The notes beneath the pieces are model-generated. The model had not been told where the DNA came from. It was given only the letters and a program-made list of their open reading frames with translations, and searched no databases. A program made the position numbers and the translations under genes. A DNA stretch of 17,927 nt from a virus (lineage: Duplodnaviria; Heunggongvirae; Uroviricota; Caudoviricetes), in the IMG/VR virus record IMGVR_UViG_2541047837_000002, one strand, 5' to 3'. Positions 1,264 to 16,826 of this stretch are shown here, piece by piece; the stretch's first letter is position 1; each line of letters opens with the position of its first letter.

Positions 1264-2157
1264 CTATTTCCAGTTACAAGCAGCTTGAAGTGGTTTTAGC
1301 GCGTTTGACAGGCCGTTTAAATTGAAAGTTGCACTTACAGGGCTCTCATTATAAGGAGTTATTTTTGTATACATTTTGTTTGAGTTGGCTAGTTTTCGGA
1401 TGAAATCAATGTCATTACCTTTATAAAAAACAGCCTTTGTATCTGTAGATACTAGCCAGTTTCGCTCAACTGCTTTCTGTTTATCAAGACGATAAAGCAT
1501 GCTGGTTTGTTCAAGGCCTAAATATACATCCCAACTAAGAAATACTTCGGTTTTCTTTTCTCGGCAAGCTATAAACAGAGTAGGAGTAACCGCTTCTCCA
1601 AATGGAGTTCTGATATAATCATCACTTTCTAACGATAAAATTACATTTTTCGAATCATCAATTGGCGATGTAGTAATGGATGTGTGCCATTTTCCTACAT
1701 CTGTGGCTTTCTCTAATTTTGATTCAGCTTGAACAGCTTTATCCTGTGGGAATAGTTTATCGTAGCAGTTTAGTCTGGCTTCTTTATCATTTTCTGCTCG
1801 GCATTTAGATATCTCAGAAAGATTTGGTTGCTGAGCCTCTGTTGTTACTGGCTTTTCCGTTTTAGATTTTGAGTTTACAGATGGAGTAAATGTTGGAGAA
1901 AAAAAACGATCATAACAAGATAAACGTCTGTCATCATCTTTCTCATCAGGGCATTGATCTCTGTTTTCGAATTTTTCAGCAACTTTCGTTCGAGTCGGTT
2001 GTATTGACTTATCGTAACAAGAAAGTCTGTCTTTATTATTTTCTATTGCTCGGCACTGGAGTACTGCATTGAAGTTATTATGTTCAGTTGCTGCGTGAAC
2101 AGGCAGTACACTAATTGATATAAATGATGCACCTATAGAAAAAATTATATTTTTCAT
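1264..2157 (-). CDS. Secreted protein of unknown function with three Cys-pair repeats
   Basis: 297-aa ORF with an N-terminal signal peptide (MKNIIFSIGASFISISVLPVHA|ATE). Three degenerate repeats of the form C-x8-RL-[SN]-CYD-[KR]: CRAIENNKDRLSCYDK, CPDEKDDDRRLSCYDR, CRAENDKEARLNCYDK. AT-rich codon usage unlike the neighbouring flk. Confidence 0.7.
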   Translation of the reverse strand: MKNIIFSIGASFISISVLPVHAATEHNNFNAVLQCRAIENNKDRLSCYDKSIQPTRTKVAEKFENRDQCPDEKDDDRRLSCYDRFFSPTFTPSVNSKSKTEKPVTTEAQQPNLSEISKCRAENDKEARLNCYDKLFPQDKAVQAESKLEKATDVGKWHTSITTSPIDDSKNVILSLESDDYIRTPFGEAVTPTLFIACREKKTEVFLSWDVYLGLEQTSMLYRLDKQKAVERNWLVSTDTKAVFYKGNDIDFIRKLANSNKMYTKITPYNESPVSATFNLNGLSNALKPLQAACNWK

Positions 2158-2161
2158 TTTG

Positions 2162-2494
2162 TTATCCTTTTGGTTTAGTAAGAAACACTAAAATTCCGAT
2201 AATGATATCGCCAATAACCCATAAACTTCCAATGGTAATTAAACCTAAGCCTGTACCAATAACTGCACCGGCTTTTTCGGCATCGGATGTAGCATTATTT
2301 ATTATTTCACTAGTGCCTCCCAGTCCAACTAAAAGCGTATAGATCATAAAAATATTAAATAATATAAAAATCCACTTAATGAGCTTTCCAAAAAATGAAC
2401 GCTTAAGTTTTTTTATTTGTTTACCGCAAGCAGGGCAATACAATGCTGAATCGCTCACCTCTTTCTGGCATTCAGGACATTTGATTAATGCCAT
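2162..2494 (-). CDS. Small zinc-ribbon membrane protein (N-terminal CxxC-x12-CxxC, two predicted TM helices)
   Basis: 110-aa ORF: MALIKCPECQKEVSDSALYCPACGKQI, then two hydrophobic segments (IKWIFILFNIFMIYTLLVGL and ITIGSLWVIGDIIIGILVF). AAGGAGG-like RBS 8 nt upstream of the ATG. Its stop is 5 nt from the start of the 297-aa ORF, so the two are probably co-transcribed. Confidence 0.7.
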   Translation of the reverse strand: MALIKCPECQKEVSDSALYCPACGKQIKKLKRSFFGKLIKWIFILFNIFMIYTLLVGLGGTSEIINNATSDAEKAGAVIGTGLGLITIGSLWVIGDIIIGILVFLTKPKG

Positions 2495-2755
2495 GTAATC
2501 CGCCTCCTTTGGATCAATACGAGTTGATATTTGTTACAAAACATTTTGATTTTATCAGATTTTTTTTTATTGATAAGTGTCAATTGATTAGCTGGTATAG
2601 AGTGAGACATAAAGAAGGTCAGATCTGTATCAGTAGTGATGCAAAAATCCCACAGTTTCATGGAATTTTTGCATTTAGAGCCGTGAGATAGGGTGCCTTA
2701 TCGACCTTACCCTGGCAACCGATTGACGGGGGATTACTCCCCCGTCGCGGTTTCC

Positions 2756-2896
2756 TTACTGCTTACACTGTAAGAACGCCGCAAACTCCGCTCCCCAGAA
2801 ACTCATCCGTATTTCGCACAGCGAACCGTGCAACATCCAGATGATGAGGATTACCGTCACGCAGAACGTGATGGCTGTAAGCGATTTTTGCGACAT
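2756..2896 (-). CDS. Hok/Gef-family type I toxin (small membrane peptide)
   Basis: 46-aa ORF missing from the ORF track: MSQKSLTAITFCVTVILIIWMLHGSLCEIRMSFWGAEFAAFLQCKQ. It has one TM helix followed by the family-typical SLCEIR ... E-x-AAF-x-x-C motif. GGAG RBS upstream (aaaaGGAGcaagtgctATG). Confidence 0.7.
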   Translation of the reverse strand: MSQKSLTAITFCVTVILIIWMLHGSLCEIRMSFWGAEFAAFLQCKQ

Positions 2897-3086
2897 AGCA
2901 CTTGCTCCTTTTCCGGAGAGGCGCTAACCTTTCACTTGCTTAGGGTAGACGGTTAGGGCCTCGGTTAAACAAAAGTGTTTTCCGGGGCCTTTCCACATCT
3001 GGCCTTCGGGTATTCCCTCCGACCATCAGCCGAAAGGCACCCGCGCGTAATCTATCGCTTTTTTGTTACTCCGGCAATTCTGCTTG
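2897..3086 (-). promoter_or_regulatory. Putative hok mRNA leader (mok-like upstream ORF, expected Sok antisense target)
   Basis: By analogy with hok/sok loci the 5' leader should hold a short overlapping or upstream reading frame and the antisense RNA gene. A 24-codon upstream ORF (MWKGPGKHFCLTEALTVYPKQVKG) ends about 25 nt before the hok ATG, and a hairpin (gacggggg-attact-cccccgtc, 2725-2746) sits in the 3' UTR. Exact RNA ends cannot be determined from sequence alone. Confidence 0.3.
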
Positions 3087-3347
3087 TTAATTCTTAGGTA
3101 AAGGCAAACTCATCTGATTGTTTCCCCTGTGTGAAGCTGGTAGCTCATGCCACGGGATACCTTCTGAAGAGTGAACGCCGGAGGCGTGTTTCGATGTGAA
3201 TTTATGGAAAGCTTCCAGTGTTGAGAAGCATACGCCGCATTCCAGATTGTTACACTGGTAATACTTTTGCCGCACGGTGTTTGAATCATTTTCCGGACGA
3301 CTTGTGCGGATACGGGCAGATGCGCCACAAAGCGGACAACGGAACAT
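3087..3347 (-). CDS. ogr: Ogr/Delta-family zinc-finger late-gene transcriptional activator
   Basis: 86-aa ORF starting MFRCPLCGASARIRTSR ... YYQCNNLECG, i.e. the Cys4 arrangement and N-terminal signature of P2 Ogr (MFHCPLC...RTSR...QC.N..C). GGGAGG RBS upstream. Confidence 0.85.
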   Translation of the reverse strand: MFRCPLCGASARIRTSRPENDSNTVRQKYYQCNNLECGVCFSTLEAFHKFTSKHASGVHSSEGIPWHELPASHRGNNQMSLPLPKN

Positions 3348-3538
3348 AGCGACCTCCCTTAACGTGGTGTTGCCGCTATTCTAGATTGTACGATCCCTAA
3401 TTCCAACTAACAGCTCGCTCTGTGCGAAGAGTGAAAATTGAACTTTCAATAGTTGTTGAACTTCCATACATCCAATGTGAAAATTCATACGTTCATAATA
3501 GTTAAAATTTAAAATATTGTATATCAGGTGAATAAAGC

Positions 3539-4561
3539 ATGGGAAGAGATATAACGCTGTACCCTAAAAAAGCAACTAGAAACGAACTTAAAAATTACCT
3601 TGAAAATTTAGGTTTTAAAAGGTGTAAACATTTGTGGGAATGGCCCCAAGGAACGTTGAATTACTCTTGGTTTGATGATACGGACTTCAAATCTACAGAT
3701 GGAGTTTCGGCTGATATATATCCTGTTTCAAATGACGAACTACACATATCTGGTAATAAATGGGCATTGCATGTGCGTAATTTATATAGCGCTAGTTGGC
3801 ATGATGTAAAAATGCTTAATGATGTTCTAAAAGGCGCACGGAGTCTTTTTGGTGGAACACTTATAGGTGATTATGGGAAAAATAGGTACGCTCCTCTATG
3901 GAAGGATTCTAGTAGTCCGATCAGTCGTGGCATTTCTTCAATATTTAATCATGTCCATCATGAGATTTCCGCTGTTAAACATGCCTTACCTGAACCTTCT
4001 ATTAAATTAAACCTACCGGAAGATGGCGGCTTATCCGAATACTTTGATTACATGCAATGTATGGATCCCAGTAGAGTTATATATAATGGATTAGTACCTT
4101 TTGCGGTTGCTATGTTTGAATATTTTTTCTCTAGAGCTTTTCAAATACTTATAAAGTACGATCCTTTCGCAATAGCAAAAAGAACATCGTATAAGCAAAA
4201 AGTTGATTTTGATATTCTGCTTGAGATAGAGAAAGGAAATATTTCAATAGAAAGTGTTATTGCAAGAAATTACACTTTTCAAAACTTAACCCACCTAAAC
4301 AAAGCATATAAAGAGTGGCTGGATATAGATGTGAGAGCGATTCTTTATAAGAAAAAAAGAATTGGAAAATCAGTTGATTTTCTTGAGAATCGAATTTCTG
4401 AAATCATACAATATAGACATGGGATAGTTCATCACTTTGAGTTGGATAGGACCTTAAATCGGGATGGATATATTCATATATTAGATGCGATAGAAAAAAG
4501 CATAATTGAATTTATCCATTACATAGAAGGCAAATACAAATTTAAATTAAATGCGTATTAA
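3539..4561 (+). CDS. Hypothetical cargo protein with a C-terminal HEPN-like Rx4H motif; candidate abortive-infection or defence protein
   Basis: 340-aa ORF, conspicuously AT-rich compared with the flanking ogr and D, with an AT-rich promoter-like upstream region and an AGGTGA RBS. C-terminal segment ENRISEIIQYRHGIVHHFELDR contains R-x4-H. No other family signature recognised. Confidence 0.75.
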   Translation: MGRDITLYPKKATRNELKNYLENLGFKRCKHLWEWPQGTLNYSWFDDTDFKSTDGVSADIYPVSNDELHISGNKWALHVRNLYSASWHDVKMLNDVLKGARSLFGGTLIGDYGKNRYAPLWKDSSSPISRGISSIFNHVHHEISAVKHALPEPSIKLNLPEDGGLSEYFDYMQCMDPSRVIYNGLVPFAVAMFEYFFSRAFQILIKYDPFAIAKRTSYKQKVDFDILLEIEKGNISIESVIARNYTFQNLTHLNKAYKEWLDIDVRAILYKKKRIGKSVDFLENRISEIIQYRHGIVHHFELDRTLNRDGYIHILDAIEKSIIEFIHYIEGKYKFKLNAY

Positions 4562-4589
4562 GCAATCAACCTTACATAGGGATGACAAA

Positions 4590-4613
4590 GTCCGCTTCTG
4601 ACACGGAGCGGAC
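4590..4613 (+). terminator. Possible terminator hairpin downstream of the cargo ORF
   Basis: gtccgct ... agcggac inverted repeat followed by a moderately T-rich stretch (cgtcgtttatgttt). Weak. Confidence 0.3.
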
Positions 4614-4681
4614 CGTCGTTTATGTTTAATTCTATACTGTAAACTTGCCAGTTTAAGTCTGAGCTAATATGTCTAAGTTGC

Positions 4682-5782
4682 TCACTCTGTTTCTGCTATC
4701 CATTCCGGGATTTTTGCCTCAAGCTCAAGCTGTGTGGTAAAGCCGCTGTTATCAATGGTGTGCTCGGCTTTTGCAATAATCCAGTCCTGATTATCAATCT
4801 CGCTTTTAAAGCCTGTTACCGTGCCATGCATTTCGGGGTAGAGTTCTGCGCGTCCGCGTGCCAGCATGATGGAGAATGATGCGGCTCCGCGTTGTAGCTG
4901 CTGCCACTTTGCCGCCGCTGCGCGTCTTGCTGCCTGCTCGTTCTGATAAGTCTTGCGTAACACAAACACATTGCCTTCCGCGCCTTCCATATAATCACCT
5001 TCACGGCTGCTGCTTTTCTCCTTTTTCGATTTGCGGCGTTTCACGCTGACTTTTTTCTTTTTCCCGTAATTAAGATCAAGCCAGTAGGCGCGTACACCCG
5101 TATACGCCTCGCGGTCAGCAATGCGAAACTGATGGCGATCGCCGCTGCTGCGTGTGATGGCAAACGATGGCAATGGTTTTCCCTGCGCGTTCACGCCACC
5201 GCCTGGCATGATGAATAACAGATTACCGCTTTTTACCGTGGTGATTGCGCCCAGCATTTCCGCCATGCGCGTAAGGAAGGACATGTCACTTTCTTCGGTC
5301 TGGTCGGCGTGGTCGATTTCGATATCCATCAGCATTTCGCTAATTTGCGGTTTCAGACCGTACCGATGAGCGATGGCGGATACCACACGCTCAACGGTCA
5401 CATCATGCCAGGACACCTCACGTTTAACGTTAAATTCATCCCGAAAATCTGCGCTTCTGGCCGAAATGGTCAGCCTGTCCGGCGGTCCTTCGTGAGCGAT
5501 TTCATCAACAATGTAAGTGCCTTTTTCTGTCAGCGGTTCTCCTTTCCAGCCAATGAGAACCGTCAGGCGCGCGCCCCGTGGCGGTAGCTGCAACTGACCA
5601 TCCGCATCATCCAGCGTGATGGTGAGCTGGTCCGCCTCAAATCCCCGGTTGTCGGTCAGTGACAGGCTCATCAGGCGCTCTGCCACGCCTGACAGCGTTT
5701 TACCCTCCGCGAGAATATCAAAATCCGGCATTTTCACGGGGTCTGTGCCCTGACTGAGCAATTGCATGGTGGTGTCGGTCAT
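4682..5782 (-). CDS. D: P2 gpD-like tail protein
   Basis: The ORF track gives 410 aa from a non-ATG start. The likely true start is the ATG at 5782 (MTDTTMQLLSQGTDPVKMPDFDIL...), which has a GGGAGGG RBS 5 nt upstream. Size and sequence are consistent with P2 late gene D. Confidence 0.85.
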   Translation of the reverse strand: MTDTTMQLLSQGTDPVKMPDFDILAEGKTLSGVAERLMSLSLTDNRGFEADQLTITLDDADGQLQLPPRGARLTVLIGWKGEPLTEKGTYIVDEIAHEGPPDRLTISARSADFRDEFNVKREVSWHDVTVERVVSAIAHRYGLKPQISEMLMDIEIDHADQTEESDMSFLTRMAEMLGAITTVKSGNLLFIMPGGGVNAQGKPLPSFAITRSSGDRHQFRIADREAYTGVRAYWLDLNYGKKKKVSVKRRKSKKEKSSSREGDYMEGAEGNVFVLRKTYQNEQAARRAAAAKWQQLQRGAASFSIMLARGRAELYPEMHGTVTGFKSEIDNQDWIIAKAEHTIDNSGFTTQLELEAKIPEWIAETE

Positions 5783-5939
5783 CTGTTCCCTCCCTGTGCG
5801 GCATGGTCGCATGTGCGTGCGGAGGGGGTTACTGCTTTTTGTTGTCGCCGGGTCGGGAGAACGGCGCAGGGGTGAGATTACGCGCGTGGTGGGTGATGAT
5901 TGTTGCCGAATCATTTAACGGATACAAGGGGCTGAAGCT

Positions 5940-7124
5940 ATGAGTGAAACTCGTTTTCATGGTGCCCGTGTTACGGAAAATACCGACCTGGTAACAGCGA
6001 TTAACGATGTTGATTCCAGCGTTATCGGTATCGTGGCAACGGCGGATGATGCGGACGCGAAGCTGTTCCCGCTGAACAAGCCCACACTGCTGACCCGCGT
6101 CAATGACGTGCTGGGAAAATGCGGGACAACGGGGACGCTTTATCGTGCACTTAAGGCCATCGCAGACCAGGTGAGCACAAAGGTGATCGTCGTTCGCGTG
6201 GCTGAACACAAAGAAGAAGACGGAAAGACGCAGGATCAACTGGTTATCGGTGGTTCTGAGGATGACGGCAGCTATACGGGGATGTATGCGCTGCTTGTTG
6301 CAGAGCAGGATGAAAGCATCGGATACCGTCCGCGTATTCTGGCCGCGCCGGAGCTGGACACGGAGGCTGTAACAAAATCCCTGTGCGTGATTGCAGGTAA
6401 ACTGCGCGCGTTTGTGTATGCCTCATGTTACGGCTGTAACACGATGGCTGAGGCGATTACCTACCGCCAGAAATTCAACGAACGTGAGGTGATGCTCTTA
6501 TGGCCGGACTTCATCGCCTACAACCCGAAAAGTGGCAAAAACGAAACGTTCCCCGCGCCTGCCTATGCGTGCGGCCTTCGTGCGTACATTGACCATGAGC
6601 AGGGCTGGCACAAATCATTGTCCAACGTTCCGGTTAAAAATGTGCTGGGGATGTCGAGGCATGTGTTCTGGTCGTTGCAGGCCGAAGACAGCGATGCCAA
6701 CAGCCTCAACAACAAAGAAATCACGACCATTATTCGTCGCAACGGGTTCCGCTTCTGGGGCAACCGCACACCGGAAACGAACGCCTACATCTTTGAGGTG
6801 TATACCCGAACCGCACAGGTGCTGGCTGATTCAATTGCGGAAGCGCAGTTTGAAACCATCGACAGTCCACTGACGCCTGCGAATGTGAAGGATGTTATCA
6901 GTGCCATCAGGGCAAAACTGGATTCGCTGGTTACTGCCGGGAAACTGATTGGTGCGGAGTGCTGGTATGACGTGGTGGATAACGGCACCACGAATTTACG
7001 TCAGGGGCGTGTGCGTATTCGCTACAAATATACGCCCGTTCCGCCACTGGAAGACATGGAGCTTTACCAGACGTTTACTGATGAATACTTTGAACCCGCA
7101 TTTGCGGTGCTGGGAGGTGCCTGA
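5940..7124 (+). CDS. FI: Contractile tail sheath protein (P2 FI-like)
   Basis: 394-aa ORF with conserved blocks shared with P2 FI as I recall it (FPLNKP, KLRAF.Y, EQGWHK.LSNV, RRNGFRFWGNRT, YKYTPVPPLE). Stop overlaps the FII start (TGATG). Confidence 0.9.
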   Translation: MSETRFHGARVTENTDLVTAINDVDSSVIGIVATADDADAKLFPLNKPTLLTRVNDVLGKCGTTGTLYRALKAIADQVSTKVIVVRVAEHKEEDGKTQDQLVIGGSEDDGSYTGMYALLVAEQDESIGYRPRILAAPELDTEAVTKSLCVIAGKLRAFVYASCYGCNTMAEAITYRQKFNEREVMLLWPDFIAYNPKSGKNETFPAPAYACGLRAYIDHEQGWHKSLSNVPVKNVLGMSRHVFWSLQAEDSDANSLNNKEITTIIRRNGFRFWGNRTPETNAYIFEVYTRTAQVLADSIAEAQFETIDSPLTPANVKDVISAIRAKLDSLVTAGKLIGAECWYDVVDNGTTNLRQGRVRIRYKYTPVPPLEDMELYQTFTDEYFEPAFAVLGGA

Positions 7125-7636
7125 TGGCTGTGCCAAAACATCTTCGCTTTTTTACGCTGTTTGTGGATGGTGAAAACGAAGTGGGTAAGGTGACGTCCGT
7201 CACTCTGCCTAAGCTGACGCGCAAAACCGACAGCTACCGGGGGGGCGGCATGATGGGTGCGGTAAGCATTGATCTCGGTCTGGAAGACTCCGCGCTTGAT
7301 GCGAGCTTTGTCATGGGGGGCGCAGTTCGTGAGCTGTTCCTTAAGTATGGCGGCACGATTGACGGCACGCTGCTGCGTTTTGCGGGTGAATACTACACCG
7401 ATGCAGAAAGTGACCTGTATGAAGTCGAAATGCGCGGACGTGTGACGGAAATTGATATGGGGGAAGCCAAACAGGGCGAAGCCACATCACACACTTACGC
7501 CATTAAAAACACCTACTACAAGCTGAGTGTTAACGATCGCCCGTTGTGGGAGATTGACCTGCTGAACTTCATTTACCGGAAGGACGGCAAGGACATTGTG
7601 CCCGATCGCATCCGTTCCGCGCTCGGGCTTGGCTGA
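7124..7636 (+). CDS. FII: Tail tube protein (P2 FII-like)
   Basis: 170-aa ORF immediately after the sheath gene with a 1-nt stop/start overlap. Size and position match P2 FII. Confidence 0.88.
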   Translation: MAVPKHLRFFTLFVDGENEVGKVTSVTLPKLTRKTDSYRGGGMMGAVSIDLGLEDSALDASFVMGGAVRELFLKYGGTIDGTLLRFAGEYYTDAESDLYEVEMRGRVTEIDMGEAKQGEATSHTYAIKNTYYKLSVNDRPLWEIDLLNFIYRKDGKDIVPDRIRSALGLG

Positions 7637-7690
7637 TAAGTAATATGCAGGCGGCGCAGTGCGTCGCCTCTGACTGAAAGGAGTTTCCTG

Positions 7691-8056
7691 ATGAAAGAGA
7701 CGAAAAACATCGATACCGAAAACACGGTAGTTACTGACACTGTGAAAGAAACCAGTGAGCGTGGCGTAAAACTTACCCAACCAATTGAGCGAGGCGGCGA
7801 AAAAATCACGTATGTGGAGATCACCGGGGCTATTGAGCAGGCTGGATCTCTGCGAGATTTGTCGCTGTCTGATGTGCTGAATCTGAAAGCGGAATCCATG
7901 TTTACGCTGCTGTCACGCGTGACATCACCGCGACTGGATGAAGTGACGATCAAAAAAATGGCATCCCGTGACTTTATTCAGTTATGTGTGGTTGCCGTAA
8001 ATTTTTTGAGCGGTGCGGACTCTGGCGGGAAGAACGAACAGGCGACGGAAGCCTGA
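7691..8056 (+). CDS. E: Tail assembly chaperone E (zero-frame product)
   Basis: 121-aa ORF with an AAGGAG RBS. The internal block DVLNLKAESMFTLLSRVTSP resembles P2 gpE. It contains the TTTTTTG slippery heptamer near its 3' end. Confidence 0.8.
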   Translation: MKETKNIDTENTVVTDTVKETSERGVKLTQPIERGGEKITYVEITGAIEQAGSLRDLSLSDVLNLKAESMFTLLSRVTSPRLDEVTIKKMASRDFIQLCVVAVNFLSGADSGGKNEQATEA

Positions 8057-8220
8057 TCACGGTTGTGTGCTTTGAGCACATTGAAGACTTTGTGGCAGAT
8101 ATTGCCGTTATTTTTAACTGGTCGCCCGCCGAAATCTTCATGATGACGCCCGGCGAAGTGGTTAGCTGGCGTGAGCGGGCGGCACTTCGCAGCGGGAATG
8201 CAGACAATGAAGACTCTTGA
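7691..8220 (+). CDS. E+E' tail chaperone fusion made by programmed -1 ribosomal frameshift
   Basis: The -1 frame ORF 7984-8220 has no plausible independent start and continues from the slippery site at 8002-8008. This is the conserved chaperone pair located between tube and tape-measure genes. Confidence 0.7.
8002..8008 (+). promoter_or_regulatory. -1 frameshift slippery heptamer T TTT TTG
   Basis: X XXY YYZ heptamer in the E reading frame (codons AAT TTT TTG). After a -1 shift it reads FFERCGLW..., identical to the 7984-8220 ORF. Confidence 0.7.
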
Positions 8221-11014
8221 TATCCGGGTCGCTTTCAGCGCCGTTGACAGGCTGACCCGACCTGCCGAAAACGCCCGCCGCCTGATGGGGCAGTTTGGTG
8301 ACTCCATCCAGCGAACGCAGGGGGCGATCAAAAATCTCGAGCGTCAGGCGCGATCATTTGAGCGCGCCCGCGACGCTGTCAGTAAAGCGGACGCGGGCAT
8401 CGTGAAAGCACGACGCCAGCTTAACGCCCTTAATCAGTTACAACGCACGGGTACAGTGCTCAGCGAAAAACAACAAAAGCTGATGCAGCAGTTAAGCACC
8501 CGGCTTGAACGCCTGAATGAATCGCGCACACGGGAAATTCAGAAAATGCGGGAGCTTGGCGGAGAACTGAAACGCCACGGCATTTCCCTGACAGGCAGCG
8601 ATAACACCATTCAGCAGGCCATCAGACGCACCGAACAGTACAACAACCAGCTTGAACGCGAACGGCAGGCGCTTGCGCGTGTAACGCGGGCGCGTGAGCG
8701 GTATTCGCGCGCGCAGGAAACCGCGGGAAAACTGAAAACAGGTGGTGCGCTGGCAATTGGTGCGGCAGCGGCGGGCGGCTATGCTGCCGGGCGTTTTTTG
8801 CAGCCTGCGATCGGGTTCGGCAAAGAGATGTCCCGCGTTCAGGCACTGACGCGAATCGACAAAAACAGCCCGCAGTTTAAGGCGCTGCGTGAGCAGGCGT
8901 TAAAACTGGGCTCTGAAACGCAGTTCACCGCAGGCGATGCCGCCAGTGGGCAGGCATTTCTTGCAATGGCTGGCTTTACACCACAGGCCATTCAGGCTGC
9001 GCTCCCTGGCGTACTGAGCATGGCAACGGCTGGCGGTATGGACCTCGGTGAGACGGCGGATATTGGCTCAAATATTCTGACGCAGTTCGGTCTTTCTGCT
9101 GACCAGATGGACCGGGTCGGCGACACACTCACCGCAGCGTTTACCCGTACCAACACTGACCTTCGCGCACTGGGTGAAACCATGAAATATGCAGGTCCGG
9201 TGGCGGGTAAGCTGGGAATATCGCTGGAGCAGGCCGCAGCGATGGCGGGCGTGCTGGCGAATATGGGTATCAGGGGGAGTGATGCTGGTACGGCAATGCG
9301 TGCCAGCCTGGCTCGTCTGGCATCACCGCCAAAGGCGGCAGCAGAGGCGCTGAAAGAGCTTGGCGTGTCTGTCTCGGATGCCGGGGGCAAAATGCGCCCG
9401 ATGGAGGATGTGCTGGCTGACCTTTATAAAGCTACCCGCAAATACGGGGAAGTTGACCGGGTATCGTTCTTTAAGGACATTGCCGGAGAAGAGGCTTTCA
9501 CATCATTTATGGCCCTCGTTGATGCGGCAGGTGACGGCTCCTTACCCAAACTGAGAAAAGAACTTGAAGGCGCGCGCGGTGAGGCTGAACGCACGGCAAA
9601 GGTTATGGCCAACAACCTTGACGGCGATCTGAAATCACTCAGCAGTGCATGGGAAGGGTTGCGCATCCGCATTGCAGATCTGATTGACGGTCCGCTGCGT
9701 TCTGTCACGCAGTGGCTCACGCGTGTGGTATCAAAGGTGACGGCGCTGGCGCAGGCCCATCCCGCACTGACGCGCCAGCTACTGATTGCAGGCGGTGCAC
9801 TGCTGGCAATGACTGCAACGGTTGGCTCGTTGTCGCTGGCTATTGGTGTGCTTGCTGGCCCGCTGGCAAAACTGCGTCTTGGTTTTTCCCTCCTGACCGG
9901 ATCAATGAATGCTGTCAGGGTTCTGCCAGCACTATGGGGAATGGTGACGGGTTCCGTTTCTTTACTGGGAGGCGCTATCGGGGCGTTGTTCAGTCCGGTT
10001 GGTCTTATCGTGGCTGCGCTTGCCGGAGCTGCCGTTCTTATCTGGAAATACTGGGATCCCATCAGGGCATTTTTTGCCGGGGTGTTCAGCGGGATTATGG
10101 AAAGGCTGACCCCGTTGCGCGAAACCTTTGAACGGTTTGGTCCTGTTTTTGACGCAATCGGGAGTGGGATCAGCCAGGTGTTTAACTGGTTTAAATCGCT
10201 GCTGTCACCGATGGAGTCCAGCAAGGAAACTCTGGATAAATGTACCAGTGCTGGCGAGATATTCGGTAACGTTCTTGGCGGTGCGTTACAGCTTGTTCTG
10301 ACACCTGCAAAAATGTTGCTGGATACGCTGGCGTGGATACTTGAAAAGCTTGGTGTGCTTCCGGATGAAGCGGAAAGGGCGCGCAAGAAAATCGAAGACG
10401 CACAGCGTGCGGCCATTCTTCAGGACAAGGTTGCCTTGCTTCAGGGGGACCTGGCGAAAATCAATCCGCCGAAGCCTGTGGAAAATGGCAATGGCACCGG
10501 AGGTGATAACCCCAAAGACAATAAACCGCTCACAGACAGCAATACCGGTACGCTGCGCAGACTCAGCAAAATTGCTGATAACACAGGTAAGCTGGTTGAG
10601 GAGACGAAAAAACGCATTGGCCCCGGCGATATTGTCTTTAAAAACCTGCCCCGAGCACTTGCTGTTCGTGGGGAGTGGCAGGAGCGGAAGATTGCGCAGG
10701 TCAGTAAGCCTGCCCCCGCAATTAATATCACACCCGTGGTCCCGGCTCCGCTGCCTCCGGCGCTGGTCCCTGTTGTTGCGGCCAGCTCCCGCCCGGTGGC
10801 GGAGGCTATACGATCTCCAGTGGCATCAGTTCCTGTAACTTCCCGTAACCGGGAGCCTGTTGCCTCCGGATTTGGTGGTGAAATTCATGTTCATCTGCAT
10901 AACGTTGTTACGCAGAATCCCCGCGAACTGGCGAAACTGGTCGGTGAAATGGTCAGGGCAGAAATGGAACGGCGCGCCCGTGCCGGGCGTGGCAGTTTTT
11001 ACGATAAAGATTGA
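8198..11014 (+). CDS. T: Tail tape-measure protein (P2 gpT-like)
   Basis: Ala/Gly-rich ORF of about 938 aa with a coiled-coil N-terminal part and internal hydrophobic segments, placed between E/E' and U. The start is uncertain between the ATGs at 8198 and 8207; the ORF track's 8171 is a non-ATG start. Confidence 0.88.
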   Translation: MQTMKTLDIRVAFSAVDRLTRPAENARRLMGQFGDSIQRTQGAIKNLERQARSFERARDAVSKADAGIVKARRQLNALNQLQRTGTVLSEKQQKLMQQLSTRLERLNESRTREIQKMRELGGELKRHGISLTGSDNTIQQAIRRTEQYNNQLERERQALARVTRARERYSRAQETAGKLKTGGALAIGAAAAGGYAAGRFLQPAIGFGKEMSRVQALTRIDKNSPQFKALREQALKLGSETQFTAGDAASGQAFLAMAGFTPQAIQAALPGVLSMATAGGMDLGETADIGSNILTQFGLSADQMDRVGDTLTAAFTRTNTDLRALGETMKYAGPVAGKLGISLEQAAAMAGVLANMGIRGSDAGTAMRASLARLASPPKAAAEALKELGVSVSDAGGKMRPMEDVLADLYKATRKYGEVDRVSFFKDIAGEEAFTSFMALVDAAGDGSLPKLRKELEGARGEAERTAKVMANNLDGDLKSLSSAWEGLRIRIADLIDGPLRSVTQWLTRVVSKVTALAQAHPALTRQLLIAGGALLAMTATVGSLSLAIGVLAGPLAKLRLGFSLLTGSMNAVRVLPALWGMVTGSVSLLGGAIGALFSPVGLIVAALAGAAVLIWKYWDPIRAFFAGVFSGIMERLTPLRETFERFGPVFDAIGSGISQVFNWFKSLLSPMESSKETLDKCTSAGEIFGNVLGGALQLVLTPAKMLLDTLAWILEKLGVLPDEAERARKKIEDAQRAAILQDKVALLQGDLAKINPPKPVENGNGTGGDNPKDNKPLTDSNTGTLRRLSKIADNTGKLVEETKKRIGPGDIVFKNLPRALAVRGEWQERKIAQVSKPAPAINITPVVPAPLPPALVPVVAASSRPVAEAIRSPVASVPVTSRNREPVASGFGGEIHVHLHNVVTQNPRELAKLVGEMVRAEMERRARAGRGSFYDKD

Positions 11015-11020
11015 GGAGTC

Positions 11021-11515
11021 ATGGCCATGATGATGATCTACGGCATGTTTGTTTTTGAGCTGCGCACGCTGCCGCATCAGCAGTTACAGCAAAACAAAAG
11101 CTGGCGGCATGTGAAAAATGAACGCGTTAACCGTTCAGCAAGCTGGCAGTATATCGGTGCAGGTGATGATCGCATCGTTCTTTCTGGTGTGCTTTATCCT
11201 GAAATTACAGGTGGCGAAGTGTCGCTGTCGCTGCTGACCACGCAGGCGTATACAGGACGACCCTGGCCTTTGATTGATGGCGTCGGGCAGATTTACGGCA
11301 TGTATGTCCTGACTGAAACGAATACGACCCGCTCCGAGTTTGATCGCTACGGTAAGGCGAAAAAGATAGAATTTTCACTGACTCTTGAACGCTGTGATGA
11401 GGATTTGCGGGAGCGCCTGCAATCCTCATCGTTCAGTGATATGCTGTCCGGCTTCAAAGATAAGGTGACATCATCTCTTAACAGCGCGGCCAGTTCAGTT
11501 AAAGGGCTGTTCTGA
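11021..11515 (+). CDS. U: Tail protein U (P2 gpU-like)
   Basis: 164-aa ORF (MAMMMIYGMFVFELRTLPHQ ... YPEITGG ... YGMYVLTE) resembling P2 gpU, directly after the tape-measure gene. Confidence 0.85.
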   Translation: MAMMMIYGMFVFELRTLPHQQLQQNKSWRHVKNERVNRSASWQYIGAGDDRIVLSGVLYPEITGGEVSLSLLTTQAYTGRPWPLIDGVGQIYGMYVLTETNTTRSEFDRYGKAKKIEFSLTLERCDEDLRERLQSSSFSDMLSGFKDKVTSSLNSAASSVKGLF

Positions 11516-11526
11516 TTTAACACAAA

Positions 11527-11556
11527 AACCGCTAATGGTCAGATTAGCGGTTTTCA
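11527..11556. terminator. Bidirectional intrinsic terminator between U (+) and the invertase gene (-)
   Basis: Stem aaccgctaat / attagcggtt (11527-11536 and 11543-11552) with loop ggtcag, flanked by T-runs on both strands (ttttcatttt downstream on plus; ttttgtgtt on minus). Confidence 0.6.
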
Positions 11557-12143
11557 TTTTCCTGAGTCTGCCCGGTTGTTTCTTCAGTCTGTATATCGCC
11601 TACAGGGTGATAACGATAAATCGTCGATGTGCCAATGCCGTAAATTATTGCCAGTTGTTTTCTGTCGTGCCCGTTTTTGATTAGCCTTGCTATTTGCTCA
11701 TGCTGTTCTTTTGTCAGCTTCGGTCGACGTCCGCCTGTGCGCCCCCTTGCGCGCGCTGCCGCCAGCCCGGCCAGTGTACGTTCAACAATTAATTCACGTT
11801 CCATTTCAGCCAGGGCACCCATCACGTGGAAGAAAAAACGCCCCATTGGAGAAGATGTGTCTATGCTGTCGGTCAGACTGCGAAAATTAATCCCTCGCTC
11901 CCGTAGTTCCCCGACGAGAGAAATCAGATGTTTCATGCTTCGCCCGAGGCGATCCAGTTTCCAGACAACCAGCGTGTCACCTTTTTGAAGGCGCTTTAAA
12001 GCGCGTTTTAATCCCGGTCGGTCTGTCTTTGTCCCGCTTAATTTATCTTCAAATATTTGTTCACATCCTGCACAAACAAGAGCGTTTCGTTGCAGGTCTG
12101 TATTCTGGTCATTTGTTGATACCCTTACATAGCCAATCAGCAC
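11544..12143 (-). CDS. Serine-recombinase DNA invertase (Hin/Gin/Cin/Pin family)
   Basis: The N-terminus LIGYVRVSTNDQNTDLQ carries the catalytic-Ser motif of the resolvase/invertase family, and a C-terminal HTH-like region (LAIIYGIGTSTIYRY) follows. The likely start is the GTG at 12143, preceded by AGGAGA; the ORF track's 12161 is a TTG further upstream. Confidence 0.85.
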   Translation of the reverse strand: MLIGYVRVSTNDQNTDLQRNALVCAGCEQIFEDKLSGTKTDRPGLKRALKRLQKGDTLVVWKLDRLGRSMKHLISLVGELRERGINFRSLTDSIDTSSPMGRFFFHVMGALAEMERELIVERTLAGLAAARARGRTGGRRPKLTKEQHEQIARLIKNGHDRKQLAIIYGIGTSTIYRYHPVGDIQTEETTGQTQENENR

Positions 12144-12197
12144 ACTGAATCTCCTGTCCAAAAGCGCAAATCATGCCATGCAGGCCAGAAACGGCCA

Positions 12198-12223
12198 TTA
12201 TTTAAAACCTCGGTTTACAGGAA
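12198..12223. other. Invertase crossover site, gix/hix-like 26-bp (left boundary of invertible segment)
   Basis: ttatttaaaacc-tc-ggtttacaggaa has imperfect dyad symmetry with half-sites TTATTTAAAACC and TTCCTGTAAACC around a 2-bp core. It matches the reverse complement of the site at 14876-14901 at 21 of 26 positions. Confidence 0.75.
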
Positions 12224-13084
12224 ACGGTAAACAGGGCTGGTAACGCCGTGCAAAAAAATGGCGATACCTTGTCCGGTGGGCTTACTTTTGAAAATGACTC
12301 AATCCTTGCCTGGATTCGAAATACTGACTGGGCGAAGATTGGATTTAAAAATGATGCCGATGGTGACACTGATTCATACATGTGGTTTGAAACAGGCGAC
12401 AACGGCAATGAATATTTCAAATGGAGAAGCCGCCAGAGCACCACAACAAAAGACCTGATGACGCTGAAATGGGATGCACTAAATATTCTTGTTAATGCTG
12501 TCATTAATGGCAGTCTTGGAGTTGGTTCGACGAATGCGTTAGGTGGTAGCTCTATTGTTCTTGGTGATAATGACACCGGATTTAAACAGAATGGAGACGG
12601 TATTCTGGATGTTTATGCTAATAGTCAGCGTGTATTCCGCTTTCAGAATGGAGTGGCTATTGCTTTTAAAAATATTCAGGCCGGGGATGGTAAAAAATTC
12701 ACGCTATCCAGCTCCAACAACTCCACAAAGAATGCAACGTTTAATTTATGGGGTGCTTCAACCCGTCCAGTAGTTGCAGAGTTAGGCGATGAGGCAGGAT
12801 GGCATTTCTATAGCCAGCGAAATACAGATAACTCGGTAATATTTTCTGTTAACGGTCAGATACAGCCCAGCAACTGGGGGAATTTTGATTCACGCTATGT
12901 AAAAGATGTTCGCCTGGGTACGCGTGTTGTTCAATTGATGGCGCGTGGTGGTCGTTATGAAAAAGCCGGACACGCAATTACCGGATTAAGAATCATTGGT
13001 GAAGTAGATGGCGATGATGAAGCCATCTTCAGACCAATACAAAAATACATCAATGGCACATGGTATAACGTCGCACAGGTGTAA
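12212..13084 (+). CDS. Silent alternative tail-fibre C-terminal (host-range) cassette Sv', promoterless in this orientation
   Basis: The reading frame is open from the crossover core (GLQETVNRAGNAVQKNGDTLSGGL...) and ends with INGTWYNVAQV, parallel to the expressed fibre C-terminus ...INGTWYNAGSI. The ORF track begins it at the GTG at 12248. Confidence 0.75.
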   Translation, partial: GLQETVNRAGNAVQKNGDTLSGGLTFENDSILAWIRNTDWAKIGFKNDADGDTDSYMWFETGDNGNEYFKWRSRQSTTTKDLMTLKWDALNILVNAVINGSLGVGSTNALGGSSIVLGDNDTGFKQNGDGILDVYANSQRVFRFQNGVAIAFKNIQAGDGKKFTLSSSNNSTKNATFNLWGASTRPVVAELGDEAGWHFYSQRNTDNSVIFSVNGQIQPSNWGNFDSRYVKDVRLGTRVVQLMARGGRYEKAGHAITGLRIIGEVDGDDEAIFRPIQKYINGTWYNVAQV

Positions 13085-13087
13085 ATT

Positions 13088-13615
13088 ATGCAGCATTTAA
13101 AAAATATTAAGTCCGGAAATCCAAAAACAAAAGAACAATATCAGCTAACAAAAAATTTTGATGTTATCTGGTTATGGTCCGAAGACGGTAAAAACTGGTA
13201 TGAGGAAGTAAATAACTTTCAGGACGACACCATAAAGATTGTATACGACGAAAATAATATTATTGTTGCCATAACCAAAGATGCCTCAACACTTAATCCC
13301 GAAGGCTTTAGCGTCGTTGAGATTCCCGATATAACAGCCAATCGTCGTGCCGATGATTCAGGGAAGTGGGTGTTTAAGGACGGAACTGTGGTTAAGCGGA
13401 TTTATACAGCAGACGAACAGCAACAACAGGCCGAATCACAAAAGGCCGCGTTACTTTCAGAAGCTGAATCAGTCATCCAGCTTCTGGAACGTGCTGTCAG
13501 GCTGAATATGGCAACAGATGAGGAACGTACACGACTGGAAGCCTGGGAACGCTACAGCGTTCTGGTCAGCCGCGTGGATACGGCAAAGCCAGAATGGCCA
13601 CAAAAACCAGAGTAA
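13088..13615 (+). CDS. Tail-fibre assembly chaperone (silent copy, Tfa/gpG-like)
   Basis: 175-aa ORF paralogous to the minus-strand chaperone at 13644-14177 (shared [19 protein letters not shown] and [17 protein letters not shown] blocks). Confidence 0.8.
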
Positions 13616-13620
13616 AAATT

Positions 13621-13640
13621 AAGGCCCGATATCGGGCCTT
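13621..13640. terminator. Palindromic bidirectional terminator at the centre of the invertible segment
   Basis: 20-bp perfect palindrome aaggcccgatatcgggcctt between the two convergent chaperone genes, followed on the minus strand by a U-run (aattttt). Confidence 0.55.
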
Positions 13641-13643
13641 CTC

Positions 13644-14177
13644 TCATTCTGGTTGTTCGGGAAACGTTACTGGCAGGCTGGAGGTGTCTGTAGATTCGAC
13701 TTTCTGCGCAAAGAGCATCCACTCGGTTAATTTCTGCTTATTCTCGTCGGAAATGATGCCCAGCCGTAGCTGTGAGTCCCATAGCTGGGTTTTATCCCTG
13801 ACAAGTTGCAACAGGCTTTGCTTTTCATTTTCCGCTTGTTGTCTCTGCTCTTCCTCGGTATAAGTTCGCTTTATCACTACGCCATCTTTGAACATCCATT
13901 TCCCCGAAATATCAGCCCGGCGATTTGCTGTAATATCAGGTAATTCAACGACGCTTGCGCCTTCCGGATTAATTGCTGAAACATCCTTTTCAATACAAAT
14001 AATAACGCCGTTATGGTCATAGACCATTTTCAAAGTGTCTGGCTGGAAATTCTTTTGTTCCTCATACCAGTTTTTTCCATCATCTGAATAAAGCCATTTG
14101 ATGTTAAATTGCTTTGTTAGCTGATATTGCTCTTTTGTTTTAGGGTTGCCAGCAGTAATGTTTTTTAAGTGCATCAT
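13644..14177 (-). CDS. Tail-fibre assembly chaperone (expressed orientation, Tfa/gpG-like)
   Basis: 177-aa ORF directly downstream of the tail-fibre gene with a 4-nt overlap. Paralogue of 13088-13615. Confidence 0.85.
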   Translation of the reverse strand: MMHLKNITAGNPKTKEQYQLTKQFNIKWLYSDDGKNWYEEQKNFQPDTLKMVYDHNGVIICIEKDVSAINPEGASVVELPDITANRRADISGKWMFKDGVVIKRTYTEEEQRQQAENEKQSLLQLVRDKTQLWDSQLRLGIISDENKQKLTEWMLFAQKVESTDTSSLPVTFPEQPE

Positions 14178-14179
14178 CG

Positions 14180-16165
14180 TTAAATACTCCCCGCGTTATA
14201 CCACGTCCCATTAATGCAATACTGAATTGGCCTTGCCTGTGTTGTATCAATTAATTCATCACGGTTTCCGTTAACTGAACCCGTAACGACATAACCTGAC
14301 CTGTCAGACCAGCCGGGACCATTCCATGTCTGAACAGATGACAGACCGCCAAGGCGAATACCTGTAATAAACCTTGAGTTACATTCTGCCTGCGTATATG
14401 CACCAACATCTCCCGCTGAAGGTTTTCGTGTCGTGGTATAGAAATCTGACCAACCTAATTCAAACCCATAACCATCACGAGCCGACCTGTAGGAAATGCC
14501 ACCATTTTTATAATTCACACGGAATTGTACGGCAGGACAGCTACCAGCATTTATATTAAAGTGAAGAATTAATACAGATGCACCACCAATCAGGGCGTTA
14601 TATGCACCACTATCCCAATTCCATCCAACGGATGTATCACCATTAACAGTATTACCTGTTTGTCGGAGTGCAAATGCATTGACATTTTTGGCACTAATTG
14701 AAATATCGCTAGAACCATCAAAACCAACTCCAGCAATTTTTCGTGCTGTTTTCAGCTTTGTTGCAGTAGCGGCATTGCCGGACAGTTCCCCAGAAAGGCC
14801 ACCGCTGAATGTTTGTCGATTGGTCCAGGTATTCGCTGTACTGAGTAACGGTATTTTCTCCCCGCTTGTGCCGAGTTCTCGTAAACCGAGGTATTCGATA
14901 ACGGCGGCAACGGTCGATTTCGCAAGAATATCCCGCCCGACTTTTGTCAGGGTTGCCAGGCTGGCGACATCATTCCCCGTAAAATACGGAAACTTGTCTG
15001 CCGCAGTAGCAAGCCCGGCCAGCGCCGTCAGGGTGGCATCTTTCGGTTGCTTACCCGCAAGCGCGTTAGTCATGGTGGTCGCAAAATTCGGGTCGTTTCC
15101 CAGCGCCGCCGCTAACTCGTTCAGCGTATTCAGTGCGTCAGGTGACGAATCTACAAGGGCGGCAATCGCAGCCATAACGAAAGCCGTGCTTGCGATTTGG
15201 GTATTATTCGTTCCCTGTCGCGCAGTTGGCGTTGTTGGCGTTCCGGTCAACGCAGGACTGTTTAAGGGCGCTTTCTTGTTCGTTTCATCCATTACCGCCT
15301 TAACCGCTTTCGATGTCGCGGCCAGTGTTTCAGACGTGCTGTTGGTGGCACTACTGAGCTGGACTATCCCTTTTTGTGCCGTCGTAGCGTCTTGAGCGGT
15401 ATATTTTGCGTTAGCAAGGTCATACGCGGCCTTTACTGCTTTCGGCGTTGCAGCCTGCGTTTCAGACGTGCTGTTGGTGGCGCTACTGAGCTGGACAAGG
15501 CCTTTTCGCGTCGTGCTGGCATCCTGCGCAGTATATTTACCGTTAGCAAGATCATACGCGGCCTTTACTGCTTTCGGCGTTGCAGCCTGCGTTTCAGACA
15601 CGCTGTTAGTGGCGCTACTGAGTTGAACAAAGCCTTTTGCGGTCAGAGAGGCGTCCGGGTGACGTCGTGACTGTTCATGCTCTTTCAGTTTGTCATCCAC
15701 GTAATCCACTGTGGCCATCACCATGGTGTTATCCACGGTAAGCGCCACGGTGGCAGTGCTGGATACGGTCAGAATGGTGCGAAATGTTTGTGCACGTCCG
15801 GACCCTTCGGCAACGGCTGGCTTGTAACTTTCGGCAGTATTTCCCACCGCGATTAAATCGCCGTGCTCATCAAATACACCAATTTCCCGGATCCAGAATC
15901 CGCCCGTTTCAGGAGGAATAACCAGCTCCGCAATAATGCGGTTCTGATGTGTTGCGTCCAGGATGACGCGATTAACAGTATGTCGCCACACCTCATGCAC
16001 CAGACGGGTCTGCTTACTGTCTGGTGTGGGCAACGTGCCGCCACCGTCGCCCACGGCCATATGAGTCAGGCGGACAGGCTTACCATCTGGCGCGGCTGCC
16101 TGCGCTAATTTTTTGGCACCCGTATCGGTGATAACGGTTTTAAATTTACGTGTTGTGGTACTCAT
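14180..16165 (-). CDS. H: Tail fibre protein (P2 gpH-like constant N-terminal part fused to a variable C-terminal domain)
   Basis: 661-aa ORF. The N-terminus (MAVGDGGG, HEVWRH, IIAELVIPPE.GGFW, AESYKP) and central region (GIVQLSSATNSTSETLAAT ... ALNTLNELAAALGNDP.FATTMTNALAGKQPK) resemble P2 H as I recall it. Resemblance to P2 H ends at IEYLG, which is where the crossover site lies. Confidence 0.9.
   Translation of the reverse strand: MSTTTRKFKTVITDTGAKKLAQAAAPDGKPVRLTHMAVGDGGGTLPTPDSKQTRLVHEVWRHTVNRVILDATHQNRIIAELVIPPETGGFWIREIGVFDEHGDLIAVGNTAESYKPAVAEGSGRAQTFRTILTVSSTATVALTVDNTMVMATVDYVDDKLKEHEQSRRHPDASLTAKGFVQLSSATNSVSETQAATPKAVKAAYDLANGKYTAQDASTTRKGLVQLSSATNSTSETQAATPKAVKAAYDLANAKYTAQDATTAQKGIVQLSSATNSTSETLAATSKAVKAVMDETNKKAPLNSPALTGTPTTPTARQGTNNTQIASTAFVMAAIAALVDSSPDALNTLNELAAALGNDPNFATTMTNALAGKQPKDATLTALAGLATAADKFPYFTGNDVASLATLTKVGRDILAKSTVAAVIEYLGLRELGTSGEKIPLLSTANTWTNRQTFSGGLSGELSGNAATATKLKTARKIAGVGFDGSSDISISAKNVNAFALRQTGNTVNGDTSVGWNWDSGAYNALIGGASVLILHFNINAGSCPAVQFRVNYKNGGISYRSARDGYGFELGWSDFYTTTRKPSAGDVGAYTQAECNSRFITGIRLGGLSSVQTWNGPGWSDRSGYVVTGSVNGNRDELIDTTQARPIQYCINGTWYNAGSI
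14876..14901. other. Invertase crossover site, gix/hix-like 26-bp (right boundary, inside the tail-fibre gene)
   Basis: ttctcgtaaacc-ga-ggtattcgataa, inverted relative to 12198-12223 with the same 2-bp core. It encodes IEYLGLRE in the fibre frame, and the left site gives NLGLQE in the same frame, so the frame is preserved on inversion. Confidence 0.75.
15266..15640. repeat. Tandem repeats of about 132 bp (about 2.8 copies) within the tail-fibre gene
   Basis: DNA blocks gcctttactgctttcggcgttgcagcctgcgtttcagac and gtttcagacgtgctgttggtggc recur at about 132-bp spacing. They encode three 44-aa repeats (VQLSSATNS.SET.AAT.KAVKA ... YTAQDA.T..KG). Confidence 0.7.
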
Positions 16166-16611: not shown

Positions 16612-16625
16612 TAACTAACTATGAG

Positions 16626-16826
16626 GTGAGGGGGAAGCAAGTAACAGAGGGTGCCTTACTTAAGGTTACGAAACACCCTAAATTTAAGAAGTATGCTTAT
16701 TGGTTATCAACAGATGAAACGATGCCGGAGGTCGGGCAAATTTCTCCGGCTCTCTCTCTTGATGGTTCCTGCAATTCGGAGGGAGATCGCGTTTCAACCG
16801 AAACAATCCAAAAATTATCCCGCTGA
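16626..16826 (+). pseudogene. Probable C-terminal fragment of a P2 C-type immunity repressor
   Basis: Sits directly upstream of int and co-directional, where C lies in P2. The block FKKYAYWLSTDETMPEVGQISPALSLDG resembles the C-terminal region of P2 C as I remember it. N-terminal HTH part is absent. Low certainty. Confidence 0.45.

Follow-up and report, generated by a model that had tools for sequence, protein, structure and literature searches.

We asked whether the tail genes of a P2-related prophage stand in a rearranged or in a native order. The whole stretch of DNA analysed (17,927 nucleotides, referred to here as the window) carries D and ogr on the minus strand and FI-FII-E/E'-T-U on the plus strand (5940-11515), i.e., the reverse of phage P2, with FI diverging from D and U converging on an invertase gene. 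These strands are as first described in the initial annotation, and its reference order also agrees with the P2 record, in which FI-FII-E-T-U-D-ogr are co-directional and D lies within the F operon. The initial annotation explained the layout by an inversion of about 5.7 kb that would orphan D from its late promoter, and its two "breakpoints" coincide exactly with the D/FI spacer (5783-5939, 157 bp) and the U/invertase gap (11516-11543). The evidence presented below argues for another reading, to which we give a probability of about 0.9: the layout is native to a clade of the P2 family, it goes back to one ancestral inversion of FI-U, and one dyad would now serve two divergent promoters. The genes concerned are the following:

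3087-3347, minus strand: ogr/Delta-type zinc-finger late activator gene (Pfam Ogr_Delta, E=5e-14; 42% identity to P2 Ogr)
4682-5782, minus strand: gene D, tail baseplate hub, intact, 366 aa (Pfam Phage_GPD)
5940-7124, plus strand: FI, tail sheath (Pfam sheath domains; 46% identity to P2 FI)
7124-7636, plus strand: FII, tail tube (Pfam Phage_tube, E=7e-47)
7691-8056 (E) and 8065-8220 (E' frame), plus strand: E and the -1 frameshift product E+E' (near-identical strain's annotation; slippery site)
8207-11014, plus strand: T, tape measure protein (Pfam PhageMin_Tail, E=4e-58; start taken from the RefSeq annotation of a near-identical strain)
11021-11515, plus strand: U, tail protein (Pfam Phage_P2_GpU, E=6e-39; 46% identity to P2 U)
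11544-12143, minus strand: serine DNA invertase of the Gin/Cin/Pin/Hin type (Pfam Resolvase and HTH_7)

Beyond the invertase gene, tfa, H and a gpI fragment are also on the minus strand. The genes of the window are orthologous to those of the P2 F operon (pF: FI FII E E' T U D, then ogr), with 42-50% identity, and the two share the internal order from FI to U, the E/E' -1 frameshift site (slippery TTTTTTG at 8003-8009 within E, where the near-identical strain is annotated with a tail protein and a GpE family protein) and a late-activator dyad upstream of FI. The difference lies at the ends of the block. P2 has D directly after U, on the strand of U and within the pF transcript, whereas in the window D is located upstream of FI on the other strand, and U converges on fibre and invertase genes. 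ogr is downstream of D, at a spacing of 42 bp in PhiR44_2 and Chuche. The D product shares 98.9% identity with that of P88 and 50% with P2 gpD. The ATG at 5782, which has the ribosome-binding sequence GGGAGGG ahead of it, is the true start of D; the start at 5914 given by a mechanical ORF list was rejected in favour of this one. In these prophages RefSeq often shortens the D start, labels D as "VgrG/Pvc8 family" and adds a spurious small ORF inside the D/FI spacer, a matter of practical relevance to annotators.

The tail-gene layout is an ordinary one: P88 and its relatives, a large P2-related group, have the "inverted" block as their normal and conserved gene order. An identical layout was found in P88, PhiSM, PhiR44_2, Chuche, SEN4 and one Reginaelenavirus, as well as, without exception, in 80 IMG/VR loci selected as the closest relatives (D identity 64-98%). 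The D/FI junction was present in at least 1380 of 5426 complete Escherichia coli genomes, about a quarter, including IHE3034, E2348/69 and O157:H7, and all listed E. coli matches that covered the D/FI spacer consisted of one collinear piece each. An assembly artefact was considered and rejected, given that more than a thousand complete genomes share the junction independently. Plaque formation has been reported for P88 (PMC5285337), PhiSM (PMC6456863) and SEN4 (PMC5261728), in papers that make no mention of an inversion or of gene orientation. The same native order was found in these three intact, plaque-forming phages and in every relative examined, which contradicts the view of the layout as a strain-specific or degenerative lesion.

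The closest systems are Xuanwuvirus (P88, PhiSM, P884B11, 500465-2), and its sister genera Reginaelenavirus and Senquatrovirus (SEN4). P88-like phages and the window have in common ogr-D on one strand, FI-FII-E-E'-T-U on the other, the invertase or other cargo, and then tfa-H-I, i.e., ogr-D is divergent from an FI-U block that converges on tfa-H-I. The window was 96-97% identical to 500465-2, PhiSM, P884B11 and P88 over 48-70% of its length, the uncovered parts being host flanks, cargo and the variable fibre. A D homologue is present in 530 phage records. The co-directional U-D order was seen in P2, Kapieceevirus, Felsduovirus, Arsenicumvirus, Citexvirus and Baylorvirus. A D tree built on dereplicated data, with a small outgroup sample of six genera, recovered the inverted-type phages as monophyletic in 100 of 100 bootstraps; since they form one clade, a single old and fixed inversion fits best. 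The proposal of a single inversion thus stands as the most economical account, only the FI-U block being reversed relative to P2, but not as a recent lesion. The ancestor of this clade of Peduoviridae temperate phages (Xuanwuvirus, Reginaelenavirus, Senquatrovirus and many uncultivated relatives) would have fixed one inversion of FI-FII-E/E'-T-U, splitting the F operon of P2.

The window itself is a truncated, defective P88-like prophage remnant between flk and pdxB. Two of its features are the following:

3384-4667, plus strand: low-GC cargo insertion between ogr and D (GC 0.32-0.36), absent from P88
16168-16613, minus strand: truncated gpI (Pfam Tail_P2_I, profile positions 38-138 of 139 only), marked as a pseudogene in RefSeq

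Inside gene I, at 16613, phage homology stops, with the integrase gene (16908-17927) beside it. This junction marks the internal deletion that makes the prophage defective and that removed all sequence between mid-gene I and the integrase. Compared with P88-like phages, the window is without J, W, V and the head, lysis and replication genes, and so falls short of a complete genome with baseplate, head, lysis, replication and lysogeny modules; the deletion nevertheless left D and the FI-U genes intact. It further differs from P88 by the 1.3-kb low-GC insertion (window positions 2685-3383 and 4668-12235 are adjacent in P88) and by the opposite orientation of the fibre segment. One cargo ORF (3539-4561) gave a weak HEPN_RiboL-PSP match (E=1.2e-4) below the curated Pfam cut-off. 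A PADLOC scan of the three low-GC cargo ORFs returned no match, and an Rfam scan of the window found no family at gathering score and no recognisable hok/sok-type RNA.

We then inspected the D/FI spacer, which is the same in the window as in its Xuanwuvirus relatives, for late-promoter elements:

5783-5939, no strand: divergent D/FI spacer of 157 bp, putative bidirectional Ogr-dependent late promoter (conservation, dyad)
5803-5808, minus strand: -10-like hexamer GACCAT of the putative D promoter (conserved block, 46 bp from the dyad centre)
5841-5862, centre 5851.5, no strand: P2-type late-activator dyad GTTGTCGCCGGGTCGGGAGAAC (GTTGT-N12-AGAAC; match to the P2-type motif)
5895-5900, plus strand: -10-like hexamer GATGAT of the putative FI promoter, pF (conserved block, 46 bp from the dyad centre)

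The spacer was 98% conserved across five Xuanwuvirus-like phages, and its length was ~147-163 bp in 71 of 73 distinct spacers of relatives. The dyad occurred at a constant position with two mismatches or fewer in all 73 (perfect in 19), its centre lying 65.5-83.5 bp (median 69.5) from the ATG of D and 80.5-88.5 bp from that of FI; the counts carry no independence, as these spacers share descent. The most conserved columns were the dyad half-sites and two flanking blocks, and the N12 was variable; the promoter argument is drawn from this pattern of half-sites kept while the spacing sequence is free, and not from a probability. The published activator consensus is TGT-N12-ACA (PMC3931495). No perfect copy of it was found in the D/FI spacer of the window, whose imperfect dyad has AGAAC instead of ACAAC and thus reads TGT-N12-AGA, with one mismatch, upstream of a late gene; in many relatives this position is occupied by a perfect GTTGT-N12-ACAAC. 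In the window the site becomes clear only through the extended GTTGT half-site and the relatives. The same dyad motif is present in the O/P spacer of P88, and the cognate zinc-finger activator is encoded by the element itself (ogr).

On the D side, 62 of 72 spacers had a NANNNT hexamer exactly 46 bp from the dyad centre; on the FI side, 67 of 72 did. The predicted transcription starts are ~5796-5797 for D and ~5907 for FI. GACCAT is a weak -10 element, and the predicted D leader is short, only ~14 nt. A scan of the spacer for sigma-70 consensus promoters found no site, its one match falling inside D; this is expected for activator-dependent promoters but gives no support. The P2 record annotates one activator site for both pO and pP, with starts 55.5 bp to either side. 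Both the P2 pP/pO spacer and the D/FI spacer have a central GTTGT-N12-xxAxC dyad, a length of ~150-170 bp, divergent late genes and -10-like hexamers 46 bp on either side, implying starts ~55 bp from the dyad centre; the genes served are P and O in P2, and D and FI in the window, where the starts are predicted only. From this shared geometry we infer, by analogy, one bidirectional Ogr-dependent promoter in the D/FI spacer.

Other origins of the layout were weighed against the ancestral inversion. A 5.7-kb inversion that took place recently, in the decaying prophage of one strain, and disconnected D from pF would suit a defective element with a truncated gene I and no baseplate, head, lysis or replication genes, and the layout does differ from that of P2. 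We nevertheless regard it as extremely improbable: the identical layout is found in plaque-forming phages, in every relative examined and in the E. coli genomes counted above, D and all FI-U genes are intact, and the D/FI spacer is conserved together with its late-promoter dyad. The active-looking invertase gene adjoining the U end of the block could point to a programmed segment switched by that enzyme, whose family does flip the neighbouring fibre segment, with both orientations seen in near-identical strains:

12194-14905, no strand: invertible tail-fibre segment (inverted repeat and pattern matches)

A clear gix/cix-type pair, 12198-12223 (TTATTTAAAACCTCGGTTTACAGGAA) and 14876-14901, bounds this segment, which is flipped in the otherwise near-identical strain LR-64-2. 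It is of the same kind as the segments of the Gin/Cin/Pin/Hin systems (Mu G, P1 C, e14 P), with a serine invertase, 26-bp crossover sites, alternative fibre C-termini and tfa genes, and it is 88-93% identical to the segments of Mu, D108, P1 and SfMu. The FI-U block, in contrast, has no inverted crossover sites at its ends. The initial annotation had seen neither gix-like sites nor long inverted repeats there, and both the pattern and the inverted-homology searches agree: no gix/cix-like site was found at 5783-5939 or 11516-11543, the only two matches (12199 and 14877) flanking the fibre segment, and the best short inverted homology between the block ends was a 7-mer, at chance level. Moreover, all of the phage loci compared, over 90 in number, had the block in one and the same orientation, as did each listed E. 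coli match covering the D/FI spacer, and PhiR44_2, Chuche and SEN4 have this orientation without an invertase. A programmed switch of FI-U is accordingly almost inconceivable. The invertase belongs to the adjacent tail-fibre switch, unrelated to the orientation of FI-U, and flips only the neighbouring 2.7-kb segment.

It is also conceivable, though unlikely, that the ancestor gained a foreign FI-U cassette, with its own promoter and in the opposite orientation, by recombination. P2-like genomes are mosaic, cargo hotspots lie at both block ends, and the mechanism of the ancient event is not readable from the present sequence. However, the distances of FI, U and D to the P2 orthologues are much alike (46%, 46% and 50% identity), as expected of joint vertical descent, and the promoter dyad matches that of the O/P spacer of the same phage; both points speak against replacement of the module. 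A replacement would give the same present-day function as an inversion in place.

Returning to the ancestral inversion, D has probably not lost its late promoter, judging from the sequence, because the conserved activator site next to it is the one that serves FI, the sheath gene. The claim that D is orphaned is contradicted by the viability of the phages and by the conserved central dyad with -10-like hexamers on both sides. The inversion would have brought pF, with its dyad-symmetric Ogr-binding site, directly upstream of D. The site centred at 5851.5 would now serve two divergent late promoters, as does the single pP/pO site in P2: a rightward output to FI-U via GATGAT (start ~5907), and a leftward output to D via GACCAT (start ~5796) which, in intact relatives, would also cover ogr, 42 bp downstream of D. 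At the other end of the block we found a candidate termination signal:

11525-11554, no strand: bidirectional intrinsic terminator with a 12-bp stem, AAAACCGCTAAT/ATTAGCGGTTTT (terminator scan, sequence)

It sits between the convergent U and invertase genes, with an A-run before the stem, a T-run after it and the right arm overlapping the 3' end of the invertase gene. This hairpin would end the rightward FI-U transcript and also that of the convergent invertase gene.

These results correct the reference used for this very common E. coli prophage group: P2 is the wrong standard for its gene order, and a D gene diverging from FI should not be taken for a sign of damage or of recent rearrangement. 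A way in which the splitting of an essential operon can be tolerated is suggested by the conserved central dyad: a symmetric site can drive both directions, as one already does at P2 pP/pO. We consider it rather more probable than not that in P88-type phages one dyad-symmetric Ogr site became a second bidirectional late promoter (pD/pF), of which we found no description in the literature searched. If so, an inversion that split an operon would have been able to become fixed without loss of D expression thanks to the symmetric activator site, and the placement of D-ogr under Ogr control would create a positive feedback loop on the late activator.

Between flk (1-996) and the pdxB side, the window holds the remnant of a P2-family prophage lying in an E. 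coli chromosome. By sequence comparison its tail proteins are clearly orthologues of P2 proteins. The strand layout described in the initial annotation, with D and ogr on the minus strand and the FI to U genes on the plus strand, was confirmed.

Features of the window (identities are to the P2 counterparts)
1264-2494, minus strand, two low-GC cargo genes
~2756-2896, minus strand, hok/gef-family toxin gene, adjoining ogr
3087-3347, minus strand, ogr (42%)
3539-4561, plus strand, low-GC ORF between ogr and D
4682-5782, minus strand, D (50%)
5940-11515, plus strand, FI, FII, E/E', T and U (FI 46%, U 46%)
11544-12143, minus strand, serine invertase
between invertase and tfa, plus strand, alternative fibre end and second tfa
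13644-14177, minus strand, tfa
14180-16165, minus strand, H
16168-16613, minus strand, truncated gpI
16908-17927, integrase gene

The D start was placed at the ATG at 5782, preceded by GGGAGGG, which gives 366 aa, the same length as D of phage P88 (98.9% identity); the start at 5914 in a mechanical ORF list was rejected. RefSeq (PGAP) gives D in these prophages a shortened start (792 bp, "contractile injection system protein, VgrG/Pvc8 family"; window 4682-5939 and 10682-11526 of record L002) and adds a small pseudo or hypothetical ORF beside it, although the full 366-aa frame is intact; this inconsistency was seen again across many genomes. An internal tandem repeat lies within H (15297-15641); its two copies (15297-15510 and 15429-15641) are 214 bp long, overlap and share about 85% identity.

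The initial annotation had explained the FI-U block by a single inversion of about 5.7 kb. Its two breakpoints coincide exactly with the D/FI spacer and the U/invertase gap, and comparison with relatives showed that the layout is not strain-specific: it was shared by all relatives examined. P88 (NC_026014) matches the window in gene order and strand (D, FI FII E E' T U, invertase, alternative fibre, tfa H I J W V onwards), and the layout recurs in Citrobacter phage PhiSM, in PhiR44_2 without any invertase, in Chuche with a glycosyltransferase after U, in a Klebsiella Reginaelenavirus and in Salmonella phage SEN4 (genus Senquatrovirus), whose D is only 63% identical. Plaque formation has been reported for P88 (PMC5285337), PhiSM (PMC6456863) and SEN4 (PMC5261728); the order is thus native in plaque-forming phages and the reading as a lesion fails. 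In an IMG/VR scan with a D alignment, all 80 loci recovered (D identity 64-98%) had U-T-FII-FI diverging from D-ogr on the opposite strand. A 1.3-kb probe spanning the D/FI junction had matches in at least 1380 out of 5426 complete genomes of E. coli, among them IHE3034 (100% identical), E2348/69 and O157:H7 strains. Of the matches listed, all that spanned the D/FI spacer did so as a single collinear piece. We consider the arrangement native, with a probability above 0.95. "Inverted relative to P2" is fair as a comparative description but not as a sign of damage, since the layout is conserved across the clade. Regarding the public records, P88 ogr (1082-1339, 98% identical to the window ogr) is unannotated in RefSeq, and products in the PhiSM record are shifted, the D gene being labelled "ogr" and the sheath gene "late control gene D".

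In six other genera D comes directly after U, on the same strand: P2, Kapieceevirus, Felsduovirus, Arsenicumvirus, Citexvirus and Baylorvirus. When 31 dereplicated D proteins were placed on a neighbour-joining tree, phages of the inverted layout grouped as one clade in 100/100 bootstraps; the economical reading is a single old inversion that became fixed in an ancestor of the clade. The neighbouring invertase was considered as the cause of the FI-U orientation. The window has just two gix/cix-like sites (12198-12223 and 14876-14901), which bound a 2.7-kb fibre segment (12194-14905), and, as noted initially, none lies at the block ends; the best inverted match between the breakpoints was a 7-mer, the length most often obtained with shuffled sequence. 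The block was never seen in the other orientation among the relatives examined and its orientation is unchanged in those lacking an invertase; the invertase is therefore a neighbour and not the cause. The fibre segment between the two sites is invertible and of the Gin/Cin type: strain LR-64-2 shares 99.98-100% identity with the window in the flanks but has the segment flipped, which changes H from 661 to 716 aa, and the fibre switch of this defective prophage therefore still works or did very recently. The 28-bp U/invertase gap contains a hairpin (11525-11554) whose 12-bp stem has an A-run on one side and a T-run on the other, a bidirectional intrinsic terminator overlapping the invertase gene end; in relatives this junction carries different cargo or none.

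D and every gene of the FI-U block have their full length, with 97-99% identity to the P88 counterparts. Phage homology ends at 16613 within gene I, adjoining the integrase; hence the modules for baseplate, head, lysis and replication are gone, and 16576-16907 is the junction of a deletion that removed roughly half of the genome of the phage (J, W, V, lysis, head, replication, immunity). Several E. coli strains carry this same remnant, 100% identical. A 1.3-kb insertion between ogr and D (3384-4667, GC 0.32-0.36) is absent from P88; its ORF (3539-4561, 340 aa) matched only HEPN_RiboL-PSP, below threshold, and PADLOC gave no hit for it. As the D-ogr gap varies from 42 bp to ~4 kb in relatives, the junction resembles a hotspot for cargo, perhaps of defence genes. 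At the flk end, 1264-2494 encodes a 297-aa protein (RefSeq "T6SS-associated TagO") and a 110-aa zinc-ribbon protein, without PADLOC match; both genes also occur in PhiSM and PhiR44_2 and are therefore phage cargo. The hok/gef-family toxin gene is also present in P88 and Chuche, and no sok-like antisense RNA reached the gathering score in Rfam.

Since these phages are viable and the tail gene D is essential, D must have a promoter; the 157-bp D/FI spacer is the sole non-coding DNA upstream of it. The published P2 late-promoter consensus is TGT-N12-ACA (PMC3931495). An extended left half, GTTGT, is common to the P2 sites. The window spacer carries GTTGTCGCCGGGTCGGGAGAAC at 5841-5862, and P88 has the same motif type both in its D/FI spacer and in its own O/P spacer. 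Spacers extracted from all relatives gave 73 distinct sequences, kept near 150-160 bp in length, which share descent, so that counts over them are not independent tests: GTTGT-N12-ACAAC with at most two mismatches occurred in 73/73 and perfectly in 19, its centre lying 65.5-83.5 bp (median 69.5) from the D start and 80.5-88.5 bp from the FI start. Conservation in a weighted alignment was highest in the columns of the two half-sites, with drift in the intervening N12. Two more conserved blocks flank this dyad, left and right, as NANNNT hexamers centred exactly 46 bp from its centre (FI side in 67/72 of these related spacers, D side in 62/72); the D-side hexamer of the window, GACCAT, is weak. 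The hexamer-to-dyad geometry equals that of P2 pO/pP, for which the record annotates one activator site common to both divergent promoters, with starts 55.5 bp either side of its centre. A rightward start is predicted near 5907 and a leftward one near 5796-5797, the latter giving a short leader with the D ribosome-binding site. P88 presents two further near-matches to GTTGT-N12-ACAAC in or beside coding regions (18277-18298 and 25678-25699), bringing its total to six versus 1.2 expected; these two could be extra late promoters or could have arisen by chance.

The initial annotation had expected the inversion to orphan D from its late promoter. Given viable phages and a conserved activator dyad in the centre of the spacer, D is very probably not orphaned, and conservation and geometry suggest that it is probably expressed from a shared, dyad-centred promoter (pD/pF) in the spacer. 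Within this widespread phage clade, for which genomes have been published before, the layout is ordinary and conserved; the putative shared pD/pF promoter is the only modestly new element.
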